64,000 nt of DNA from a virus. Taxonomy: Duplodnaviria > Heunggongvirae > Uroviricota > Caudoviricetes. Where the stretch lies: the IMG/VR virus record IMGVR_UViG_3300029415_000001. One strand, written 5' to 3'. Both the position numbers and the translations under genes were made by a program. Of this stretch, positions 5,009 through 6,755 are shown in pieces. The notes beneath the pieces are model-generated. The model had not been told where the DNA came from and searched no databases. It saw only the letters and a list, made by a program, of their open reading frames with translations. Each line of letters starts with the position of its first letter. Positions within the stretch are counted from its first letter, which is position 1.

Positions 5009-5182
5009 ATTAGTGTAATATCGCCTCAATGAATCGTGATTTATAGAGCGATTTAGCTGTTAGCCGCGACAGGCGCGGCGGTAAGCATGGCTGGGCCTAG
5101 TCCTCCCAGACAAACCACCGAGTTGCCAGGTTGACCATGCGCCTAAGTGGCAACGCCGAAGTGCGTTACGAGCTTCCAGTTT

Positions 5183-5208
5183 GCCCATCTTCGGGTGGGC
5201 GTTTTTTT
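5183..5208 (+). terminator. rho-independent terminator downstream of dmt
   Basis: GCCCATC-TTCG-GGTGGGC hairpin followed by GTTTTTTT. Confidence 0.6.
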
Positions 5209-5673
5209 CAGGGTTTTCGTCATGGTTAGCGACTTTGCGGCGGTTTAGAAACTGACCATTAAAGTAAATGCAAACGATGATCTGATGATGGTAGCGGCCT
5301 AAGAAGCCAGATGCCACGGGGTATGAGTCGTCCCCCGTCAAAAAATCGACCGCAGAGTGTCCCCGTCTGTGTATTAGGGAACGGGGAGGCACAACAGGTA
5401 AGGGCGCTGGTGTGATTAACCAGATGAACGAGAAGGGGCCTTCTGTTGGTCAGCGTCCTTTCCTGTTGCGTTTTCTTTTCAGCGTAACAGCGGTGCTTAA
5501 CAGCACTTTGGGTACAGTTCCACGAATTTACGGGTATATCCCGTCATGCTGAAGGCGCTAATCACGCTGGAAGCCAGGGTTGTGCATCCCCTGTTACCGA
5601 ATTGCAGCCAGGGCGCGGTGCGCCGAAAAGCATACGGAGGTGGAAGCCCTCGCCGGAGACGTACCCGGCAAGT

Positions 5674-5749
5674 GATGGTGTAGCTCAGCGGTTAGAGCGG
5701 TTGACTGTTAATCAACGGGTCGATGGTTCAAATCCATCCACCATCGCCA
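5674..5749 (+). tRNA. tRNA-Asn (anticodon GTT)
   Basis: Hand-folded cloverleaf: acceptor GATGGTG/CACCATC, D-arm GCTC..GAGC, anticodon loop CTGTTAA, T-loop TTCAAAT, encoded CCA. Confidence 0.85.
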
Positions 5750-5751
5750 AT

Positions 5752-5827
5752 GCCGGTTTAGCTCAGTTGGTAGAGCGCCTGCCTTGTAAGCAGGATGTCA
5801 GCGGTTCGAGTCCGTTAATCGGCACCA
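5752..5827 (+). tRNA. tRNA-Thr (anticodon TGT)
   Basis: Acceptor GCCGGTT/AATCGGC (one G-U), D-arm GCTC AGTTGGTA GAGC, anticodon stem CCTGC/GCAGG with loop CTTGTAA, T-arm AGCGG TTCGAGT CCGTT, encoded CCA. Confidence 0.85.
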
Positions 5828-6755
5828 GCACAACAGGTAAGGGTATTTTGCGACGTCGGAGATCGCCGAGCTTGGCAGAGGGTTCGAATCCCTACGAAGT
5901 ACCCTTACCGTTGTGATGAATGCGCAGGCTGATGCGCGAAAGACATTGCAGCTATTGCGGAAAAGAGCTGTTCGGCGGGGCAATTAAACGCCCGTGAGAG
6001 TCTGAAATAACCGCAAGCCGGAGATCAGCACCGGTCATCACAACACAACAGGTAAGGGCATTCTCCCTTATGGGGCTTGGCTTAAATGCATCGAGTGCTC
6101 TTACCGTTGTGATGAAGTGCAGCTCTTTGAAGCAACCAGAAGATAAGCATCTGGCTTCACAACATAAACCGCAGGAACGACCAATAAACGGTAGTCCGTA
6201 TGGAGAACACCCCGTTGAGGAAGAGGCCTGGCCGGAACCGTAACCGGCACTACAACGTTGAGAACACTGGCGTAACGGGGTCATATCCCAATCTACGAAT
6301 AAATGTTGCGTTGCAGCGTGACAACCAGTGTTCTCAACATTGTGGTGAATGCACAGGCTGATGTGCCGCAACTACAGTAGTGCGCGCTTTGCGGGGCTTG
6401 CTACAACCCTGTGTCGGAGTTCAGCACCGACCATCACAGTTTGATTCTCTGGCATGAGCATAACGCTGAAATAAGTCCAGTCTGGTGCGGTCTGATCACC
6501 CGCCGTTAGCTCCACGAAACGGAGCACGTAACAGGTAAGAGCATTCTCCTGTAACGGGTTCATATCCCAATCTACAGGTCCACCAGGAATGCTCTTTCCG
6601 TTGCGGTGAATGCGGCTAAGCGCACGCGGGGAAATGGTTATATCAGTCCATTCATTTCTCCTTGTTTCCCCGTCCACGGTGGATAACCAGCCAAAGGACA
6701 CCGGGAGGCACCCGGCACCGCAGCTTTTTTATTCGTTAAATAATGGAGTGAGAGG

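Follow-up and report, generated by a model that had tools for sequence, protein, structure and literature searches.

Species 1 and 2 of phage T4 are small stable RNAs, encoded by single genes, that are co-transcribed with the T4 tRNA cluster, and the T7 R1.1-type sites and the lambda N leader are RNase III processing hairpins in polycistronic early transcripts. In the Qin prophage of Escherichia coli K-12, a 190-nt species of the small RNA (sRNA) DicF is RNase III-dependent and the 53-nt species is RNase E-dependent; both come from the dicBp transcript, and the 190-nt species and DicF end at the same 3′ position (bioRxiv 10.1101/2023.04.14.536235). Here we analyze a 64,000-nucleotide stretch from the IMG/VR virus record IMGVR_UViG_3300029415_000001 (the window), in which five related hairpins (units U0–U4) lie within 5390–6605 on the plus strand and flank genes for tRNA-Asn and tRNA-Thr. 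The units belong to a large family that Rfam does not cover, their stem structure is under selection, and a hairpin of the same family precedes dicF in Qin. We favor, with moderate confidence, the interpretation that a polycistronic precursor of small RNAs and tRNAs is punctuated by the units, which would act as processing stems of the RNase III type.

Five hairpin units in the ban operon leader

The window derives from a P1-like phage, with 99.5% identity to phage RCS47 and 99% identity to P1 across 4900–6800, and in other parts of the window Rfam detects C4 and isrK, both hallmarks of P1. The array region lies past dmt, which ends at 5001, and before the genes that follow; the P1 record places the start of the ban operon here. 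Annotation transferred from P1 record AF234172 (99% identical) places the P2ban and P1ban promoters and the C1 operator Op72 at ~4976–5022 (+), from where they drive and repress the whole region, and a consensus scan of 4800–8200 found no further sigma-70-like promoter. The 1.7 kb that hold the array are the untranslated leader of this operon, which C1 represses.

The initial annotation, made from the sequence alone, had described an array of related hairpin repeats interleaved with the two tRNA genes, and a repeat search combined with RNA folding recovered all of its elements in place or nearby. Each unit consists of a stem of about 19–20 bp that encloses a variable insert of 37–56 nt. The repeat search located the 5′ arm GCACAACAGGTAAGGG at 5389, 5828, and 6043, and the 3′ arm and tail family CTTACCGTTGTGATGAATGC at 5904, 6100, 6333, and 6594; the tail motif GTTGTGRTGAATGCR, with at most one mismatch, occurs four times in the window against 0.03 expected. 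The arms are shared as had been claimed, except that the 3′ arm of U0 terminates in CCTGTTGCGTTTTC without the GTGAATGC tail and the U2 tail reads GATGAAGTGC. Compared with shuffled sequences, the unit folds reach z = −4.2 to −6.9 on the plus strand and are weaker, −2.4 to −5.4, on the minus strand.

U0 (5390–5470, +; −41.6 kcal/mol, z = −4.5) has a stem without the bulged A found in other units. U1 (5829–5915, +; −42.3 kcal/mol, z = −6.2) starts 1 nt past the CCA end of tRNA-Thr and has a stem of 6+14 bp with a bulged A; its insert contains the T-arm-like hairpin AGGG-TTCGAAT-CCCT (AGGGTTCGAATCCCT, 5879–5893) that had already been pointed out. U2 (6044–6111, +; z = −5.5) is followed by U3 (6248–6347, +; −49.2 kcal/mol, z = −6.9), whose stem sequence is quite different (GTTGAGAACACTGG/CCAGTGTTCTCAAC) while its shape is that of the other units. 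The U3 arm of 23 nt is 91% complementary, and the GTTGAGAACACTGG/CCAGTGTTCTCAAC core is the perfect 14-bp inverted repeat that had been noted initially. The inserts of U3 and U4 (6527–6605, +; z = −4.2) contain ACGGGGTCATATCCCAATC (6275–6293) and ACGGGTTCATATCCCAATC (6554–6572), respectively. Upstream of U0, a hairpin CCCCGT/ACGGGG occupies 5361–5386 (+), as defined by its sequence and by an alignment of the tag module described below; other phages carry GCCC...GGGC or CCCGU...ACGGG in its place, and its GUGU loop could form a candidate pseudoknot with the beginning of U0. The P1 reference (AF234172) lacks 5904–6099, and the ends of this deletion fall in the identical 3′ arms CTTACCGTTGTGATGAA of U1 and U2, indicating that array size varies by recombination between arms.

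The two tRNA genes, tRNA-Asn (GTT; 5674–5749, +) and tRNA-Thr (TGT; 5752–5827, +), were called by ARAGORN and score 74.5 and 72.9 bits with the Rfam tRNA model. At the gathering score, Rfam returns tRNAs alone in the region and nothing but tRNAs in 15 lambdoid loci, and no Rfam family covers any unit, even at E ≤ 10. Weak matches of microRNA families to the stems were rejected as artifacts of long hairpins. The YrlA model (RF02553) gave a single match, at 25.6 bits versus 69, which lies on the two true tRNAs and on no unit. These searches bear on the earlier suggestion that the units are tRNA-derived pseudogenes, that is, decayed tRNA genes in a phage tRNA cluster. The units do adjoin tRNA genes and include T-arm- and anticodon-arm-like pieces, and in related P1-like phages the array includes tRNA-Tyr, tRNA-Ser, or tRNA-Arg; however, ARAGORN and the Rfam tRNA model (RF00005) call the two real tRNAs only, even at E ≤ 10, and no unit scores as a tRNA. 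What is conserved is a long stem and not a cloverleaf, this covarying 19-bp stem is absent from any tRNA, and members of the family are found at sites without tRNAs as well, as in Qin and HK620. We consider tRNA decay extremely unlikely.

On the minus strand, the P1 and RCS47 records annotate the open reading frames (ORFs) plp and upl at 5952–6701, and ORFs of 139 and 109 codons overlie the hairpins there. Two ORFs of this length, annotated in two phage records, could mean that the region encodes minus-strand proteins and that the repeats are a by-product, but neither ORF has a Pfam match, and P1 Plp and the window ORF have only residues 1–93 in common, the C-terminal third being wholly different. 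The similarity ends at residue 93 because P1 lacks 5904–6099, and as a result of the same deletion the P1 plp coding sequence runs antisense into tRNA-Thr. In relatives, tblastn recovers fragments only, which coincide with the RNA modules and contain in-frame stops in four loci (L064, L225, L195, and L068), and PGAP annotates nothing here in E. coli genomes. No conserved reading frame underlies the hairpins, in agreement with the initial impression that the ORFs are unconvincing, and we give the protein-coding explanation next to no credence. The P1 reference annotation is corrected accordingly: the 1.7 kb from dmt to the next genes is a non-coding RNA operon, and plp and upl are most likely not genes.

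A widespread RNA family with a covarying stem

Among the matches listed, the 15-mer CGTTGTGRTGAATGC occurs in more than 120 IMG/VR viral contigs, nearly all of which carry a matching 5′ arm upstream; a scan of genome contigs with the same 15-mer listed almost only chance matches in unrelated taxa. The family consensus is CACAACAGGTAAGAGCATTG, a variable insert of 10 to ~95 nt, CAGTGCTCTTTCCGTTGTGGTGAATGC, and then GCGCAGGCTGATGCGC. As a query, this consensus matches at least 145 phage records with hosts in Klebsiella, Escherichia, Salmonella, Enterobacter, Erwinia, Cronobacter, Shigella, and Pantoea. The records include lambdoid phages (HK620, HK629, HK633, CUS-3, Stx), an N4-like phage (IME11), Ackermannviridae (UPM 2146, Magnus), and 46–48 kb Klebsiella phages. 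The U1–U2 segment is matched in 1243 of 5426 complete E. coli genomes, with no annotation under the matches. These results define a widespread enterobacterial phage RNA family, present in roughly one in four complete E. coli genomes, whose carriers range from Stx and other lambdoid prophages to lytic phages of Klebsiella and E. coli that are under consideration for therapy. This distribution had escaped the initial annotation, as had the DicF- and STnc100-type modules, the tag module, and the resemblance of the U3 and U4 inserts to initiator tRNA, all described below.

To define the conserved structure, 38 diverse units were aligned and 24 pairs, comprising a 19-bp stem and a 5-bp tail hairpin, were scored. 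Across the alignment 93.3% of cells are paired and 14 of the 24 pairs have changed on both sides; none of 500 shuffles reached the observed values on any of five measures, and controls with slid partners were only 30–61% paired. The stem structure is under selection. Its irregularities are fixed as well: a bulged A that follows the sixth pair, a U·U position (U-A in U1 and U2 of P1), and a U·G wobble. G·U pairs are frequent, and at these positions the opposite strand would have A·C mismatches. We summarized the family in a covariance model, R1, consisting of a 6+13 bp stem with the bulged A, the variable insert, the GTGAATGC tail, and the 5-bp hairpin, which the window units fit. Searched against all 64 kb, R1 returns the five unit sites only. 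U1–U4 score 59–88 bits on the plus strand (88.2, 59.2, 68.3, and 65.1 bits) versus 22–30 bits on the minus strand, and U0, which lay outside the training set, scores 25.3 bits (E = 3e-4).

Units and tRNA genes lie on one strand in 56 of 56 pairs (≤2.5 kb apart, 17 loci). The G·U pairs, the better folds and covariance scores on the plus strand, and this co-orientation with tRNAs all favor RNA from the plus strand. The proposal that the array encodes structured RNA is supported by the covariation, the G·U pairs, and the tRNA orientation.

In lambdoid phages, units lie just downstream of cI in the pL direction and also in the Q-holin gap, within the pR′ late leader, where they are oriented with pR′ and thereby add to the evidence for the transcribed strand. 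IME11 (L127, 1483–3569) and UPM 2146 (L128, 1406–4742) each have a 2–3 kb gene-free gap that contains units and tRNA genes; of these two, the tag module was confirmed in IME11 only. At 3105–3180 of the IME11 locus ARAGORN makes an odd call, “tRNA-???”, with a 2-nt anticodon. In HK620 (L126, 1979–2686), a unit at 2410–2542 is situated between the annotated pR′/qut and the late terminator tQ, and would therefore belong to the constitutive short pR′ transcript in lysogens.

This placement raises the question of whether the units protect a long untranslated transcript in cis, either by boxA-like recruitment of Nus factors, as in rrn or lambda nut antitermination, or by denying Rho a place to load. 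The 3′ arm consensus contains TGCTCTTT, the core of the rrn boxA, and downstream of it come a GT-rich stretch and a small hairpin; the units reside in leaders of antitermination-dependent operons (pL, pR′), and there are terminators inside the P1 leader. The boxA-like bases, however, are paired in the stem, and TGCTCTTT is replaced in covarying units, by GTGTTCTCAAC in U3, GGCAGCTTTTC in L062, and AGCGATCCCC in L104. Moreover, the lambdoid loci examined have no unit on the pR/cro side, where a second nut-type site would be expected. In HK022, no unit was found in the 8 kb from 22000 to 30000, a stretch in which PL and put are unannotated and outside which the put sites perhaps lie. A boxA or nut function of the arm was rejected because its bases form pairs and covarying units do not retain them, and we judge cis-acting protection as a whole to be unlikely.

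The conservation of the arms could also reflect a function at the DNA level, as recombination sites, either folded single-strand sites of the attC type or homologous linkers that shuffle small cassettes such as inserts and tRNA genes from phage to phage. The arms are near-identical in unrelated phage families while the inserts and tRNA content vary, the P1 deletion runs exactly between two identical arms, and the AAC...GTT ends, extrahelical base, and variable top resemble attC. On the other hand, the units are oriented with transcription whether the operon runs leftward or rightward and always match the tRNAs, G·U pairs are frequent, and no integrase or HUH enzyme travels with the units. The cores CACAAC and GTTGTGG also compare poorly with the attC cores RYYYAAC and GTTRRRY, since GTTGTGG misfits GTTRRRY, and exchange between repeats is expected for any repeat without a dedicated function. 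Orientation, G·U pairs, the lack of a traveling recombinase, and the core mismatch led us to reject the recombination-site explanation, which we hold to be highly improbable.

Homology to the Qin dicF region and proposed processing of the leader transcript

R1, which was built without Qin sequences, matches the K-12 Qin prophage at L363 17171–17280 (35.5 bits, E = 1e-6), between ydfC and dicF, and Qin positions 17173–17258 (NC_000913 1649172–1649257) fold into the family stem. We found no description in the literature of this hairpin as a member of a repeat family. A second unit-like hairpin is present in K-12 Qin at L363 9143–9227 (−; NC_000913 ~1641142–1641226; 37.9 bits), unannotated and situated in the late operon between cspB and essQ.

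The homology extends beyond the stem. At 5064–5158 (+) the window carries a pre-sRNA scaffold whose homologue in Qin lies immediately before dicF; the local alignment of 5064–5158 with Qin L363 17263–17359 scores 84 versus 16.5±2.2 for shuffles (z = 30), with compensatory changes in both hairpins. The scaffold is followed by an sRNA body with a strong intrinsic terminator (5160–5208, +; stem at 5182–5201, then T7), located by a terminator scan, which occupies the position of DicF in Qin but differs in sequence, and the Rfam DicF model has no match in the window, either at gathering or at E ≤ 10. Farther downstream, the module between the dicF terminator and dicB in Qin matches the module after U4. 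Because both the scaffold and the flanking module are homologous, the “dicF-like region” that P1 carries as a misc_feature (~5116–5217) corresponds to the Qin pre-sRNA scaffold joined to another sRNA body, and 5064–5208 is, as judged from its sequence, a DicF-analogue sRNA locus.

The P1 and Qin arrangements thus agree in having a unit-like hairpin before an sRNA, a homologous scaffold, and the same post-terminator module, all downstream of a repressor-controlled early promoter. They differ in that Qin has one hairpin and no tRNAs or tag there, whereas in P1 five units are accompanied by two tRNAs and a tag module, and in the sRNA body itself. In Qin, the position of dicF (17383–17435) would put the 5′ end of the 190-nt species at ~17246, in the 3′ arm of the hairpin (17239–17258). 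The initial idea of a processing hairpin therefore gains support from homology to a hairpin upstream of dicF whose RNase III processing has been published.

We propose that the 1.7 kb untranslated transcript from the C1-repressed ban promoters would be a polycistronic precursor of non-coding RNAs, running from the DicF-type sRNA and its terminator through the tag module, U0, tRNA-Asn, tRNA-Thr, and U1–U4 with their spacers to an STnc100-like end. Each hairpin module presents a stem with a variable structured insert, then the conserved single-stranded GAAUGC and a small hairpin. The stems would serve as entry sites for RNase III, which the homology to the Qin case makes the most likely enzyme; RNase E may assist at the single-stranded tail, which is conserved. 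Once cut, the modules would come apart with defined ends, and the insert hairpins would be set free as small stable RNAs. If so, such entry sites offer a testable mechanism by which prophage sRNAs and phage tRNAs are excised from long leaders.

Several points weigh against this proposal. Transcript cleavage has been published for Qin only and not for P1, for which we found no useful transcriptome in the literature. Even in Qin, we placed the cut by the 190-nt gel size and not by the coordinate 813/814 attributed to Faubladier 1990 as cited in 10.1101/2023.04.14.536235. The high R1 scores of U1–U4 are partly circular, since four of the five window units (U1–U4) were in the training set, leaving U0 and the Qin hairpins as the independent matches. 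The strong terminator at 5182–5208, about 165 nt past the P1ban promoter, lies between the promoter and the units, so that expression of the array would require read-through, which we presume, or an unseen promoter. Finally, plain cut sites need neither near-identical sequence across unrelated phage families nor conserved inserts, so that a more specific factor probably plays a part, for example a partner protein or a role of the inserts themselves.

The likeness to other phage systems is partial. T4 small stable RNAs are also structured non-tRNA RNAs that are transcribed together with phage tRNAs and depend on host RNases for maturation, but they come from single genes with no repeated scaffold and variable inserts. 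The T7 R1.1 and lambda N leader sites similarly are long, imperfect, irregular stems between modules of a phage transcript; unlike the units, they are not known to form a mobile family with conserved sequence and large variable inserts, and what they separate are mRNAs, not non-coding RNAs.

Tag module, inserts, and spacers

Between the DicF-analogue locus and U0 lies a module (5213–5345, +) that resembles the coding part of transfer-messenger RNA (tmRNA). Its conserved leader, GTTTTCGTC...TTTAGAAACTGACC...AAAGTAAAT, runs up to GCA at 5270, which opens a frame of ten codons closed by TAA at 5300–5302. Positions 5270–5302 read GCA AAC GAT GAT CTG ATG ATG GTA GCG GCC TAA, encoding ANDDLMMVAA*. 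The A-rich AAAGTAAAT precedes GCA as before a resume-type codon; a TAG lies in frame upstream, and no ATG, GTG, or TTG occurs between this TAG and the GCA at 5270. The TAA sits in the loop of a small hairpin (GGC 5296–5298/GCC 5306–5308) built partly of the last Ala codons, whose variants GGC/GCC, CGC/GCG, UGC/GCA, and AGCC/GGCU are compensatory. A stop codon in a hairpin loop is the arrangement of tmRNA helix 5.

The tag reading frame is kept by selection. Twelve DNA variants from other enterobacterial phage contigs, found with a search pattern that fixed the first four codons only, all have ten codons and TAA; they encode the tags ANDDVVLMAA, ANDDLMLMAA, ANDDLMLAAA, and ANDDQFLAVA, and 104 of 254 pairwise codon differences among the variants are synonymous. 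A hairpin after the tag (5316–5338) is 98.5% paired, with three of its five pairs compensatory, and a candidate pseudoknot following the tag has changed stems in L184, L207, and L212, in columns not alignable for a count. The module is present in 660 of 5426 E. coli genomes, where in chromosomal prophages it lies in the Q-holin gap.

The Rfam models tmRNA_permuted, alpha_tmRNA, and beta_tmRNA align with the tag region alone, at 14–34 bits, below gathering. As in two-piece or permuted tmRNA, an A-rich leader ending in AUAAAU precedes GCA, the tag begins with ANDD and ends with hydrophobic residues and Ala-Ala, the stop lies in a hairpin loop, and structured elements follow. In contrast to tmRNA, the module has no tRNA-like domain (acceptor stem with G3:U70, T-arm, and CCA end) that ARAGORN could find in the window or in 20 related loci, and its DNA similarity to ssrA is no better than chance. 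Recent capture of host ssrA was rejected accordingly, as 5030–5680 scores 32 against E. coli ssrA and shuffles score 33.9±5.4. A hidden tRNA-like domain formed by cross-pairing the arms of the tag-flanking hairpins was also rejected, since each unit has a base helix of its own (in L190, GCGAAA/UUUCGU versus CACAAC/GUUGUG). We know of no way in which a tag reading frame works without a tRNA-like domain, and found neither the arm sequences nor the tag peptide in the literature. If the tag is used, it poses a new question about phage control of ribosome rescue.

Some inserts recur in different phage contexts. The U1 insert is found again in one lambdoid contig (L166) and the U2 insert in three (L114, L144, and L148). 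The motif GTAACGGGKTCATATCCCAATCTAC occurs in U3 and U4 (6272–6296 and 6551–6575, 96% identical), as had been reported; the additional upstream copy claimed for it (5530–5545, ACGGGTATATCCCGTC) is only loosely similar. The common core of the two inserts, ACGGG(G/T)TCATATCCCAATC, is a motif of many lambdoid contigs, and in its commoner lambdoid form, ACGGGCTCATAACCCAATC, 14 consecutive bases (CGGGCTCATAACCC) equal the anticodon arm of E. coli initiator tRNA, comprising three G-C pairs and the loop CUCAUAA; we confirmed the initiator tRNA sequence in 5426 of 5426 E. coli genomes. The outer stem of the motif covaries (GUA/UAC, GUG/CAC, GGA/UCC). T-arm-like hairpins, with a stem and a UUCGAnU loop, occur in many inserts, and most inserts have no identifiable resemblance.

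These observations are the basis of an alternative, compatible with processing, in which the inserts are the point: the stem would be a scaffold that displays and, once processed, releases small structured RNAs imitating pieces of host translation RNAs (a T-arm, the anticodon arm of initiator tRNA, and the tag region of tmRNA), as decoys or competitors for VapC-type toxins, tRNA-modifying enzymes, or the trans-translation machinery. VapC cuts the anticodon arm of initiator tRNA. The recurrence of inserts across unrelated phages with different neighbors, the 14 bases that ACGGG-CUCAUAA-CCCAAUC shares with the initiator anticodon arm within a covarying outer stem, the T-arm-like hairpins, and a tag frame kept through synonymous changes all speak for a decoy function. 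Most inserts, however, are unrecognizable, and some units are nearly insert-free, such as ACATAACAGCTAAGTATTTTC-AACCAGA-GAGAATCCTTAGCGTTGTG. The anticodon-like loop of P1 is (G/U)UCAUAU and not CUCAUAA, and by a rough estimate the chance of a 14-nt match to some tRNA among all inserts is ~0.03. We therefore see a decoy role as possible but doubtful. A bolder variant, to which we assign little weight, is a display system in which an RNase III-processed stem would present interchangeable tRNA-mimic inserts and the tag would be used in a new way, where it may act as a trans-translation decoy, as a template with a separate acceptor RNA, or as a tagging system for late transcripts. If this were true, at least five unrelated phage groups would share a kit to manipulate translation or to blunt tRNA-targeting defenses.

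Returning to the array as a series of processing stems, the segments between units are themselves structured, each spacer domain having two small hairpins and an end complementary to the preceding tail. Spacer domain 1 (5916–6043, +) has 96–98% identity with lambdoid phages, in which its position is downstream of cI. It consists of the conserved GAAUGC, a hairpin GCGCA-GGCTGA-TGCGC (5922–5937), a variable middle, a hairpin CCGG-AGATCAGCA-CCGG (6018–6034), and TCATCACAAC, a complement of the tail of U1, GTTGTGATGA. The small tail hairpin is 90% paired, and four of its five pairs are compensatory. The helix that closes the spacer has a counterpart in the Rfam STnc100 model; it is backed by single examples only, namely GTTGCGGTG...CACCGCAG (U4), ATTGCGGTGA...CACCGCAAT (L195, L238), and GTTGTGATGA...TCATCACAAC (U1), and statistics have no discriminating power here, as the tails are almost invariant and G·U pairs are allowed. 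Spacer 2 (6112–6247, +) contains the hairpins CCAGAAGATAAGCATCTGG and CCGGAACCGTAACCGG and includes a member of repeat family D2. Spacer 3 (6348–6526, +) contains GCACA-GGCTGA-TGTGC (6351–6366), TCGGAGTTCAGCACCGA, CCATCACAGT, and CTCC-ACGAAAC-GGAG (6510–6524); the CTCCACGAAACGGAG hairpin is found before units in other phages too. The short repeat CAGCACCGRYCATCACA, initially placed in front of two units, directly precedes U2 (6026–6042), whereas its second copy (6422–6438) lies ~88 nt before U4; a degenerate third copy is found near 6145–6161 (family D2).

The array ends in an STnc100-like module (6600–6733, +; GTTGCGGTGAATGCGGCTAAGCGCACGCGG...CACCGGGAGGCACCCGGCACCGCAG) followed by a T-run that is likely the 3′ end of the non-coding transcript. 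Positions 6602–6722 match Rfam STnc100 (RF02076) at 37.8 bits (E = 3e-6) over model positions 31–147 of 206, a partial-model match that does not reach the gathering score of 47. STnc100/PasD sRNAs have been reported near Q in lambdoid prophages (10.64898/2026.05.13.724894). The terminal module has the STnc100/PasD closing helix UGCGGUG/CACCGCA and the CCGGGAGGCACCCGG hairpin, but the match is below gathering and the units lie outside the model. The hairpin family ties DicF, STnc100/PasD-type sRNAs, and phage tRNA clusters into one modular system.

Elsewhere in the window, a third tRNA with anticodon CAT (7828–7903) is the counterpart of P1 trnI, annotated in P1 as tRNA-Ile2. It is preceded by two ORFs where P1 has tciA-C; one encodes a 78-aa membrane protein, the other a protein of 275 aa that the RCS47 record lists as a putative serine protease. 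The C4 and isrK matches at 32935–33125 (+) mark the P1 immI region, and a match to RNA-OUT, the IS10 antisense RNA, at 54061–54130 (−; 98.8 bits) indicates an IS10/Tn10 insertion.

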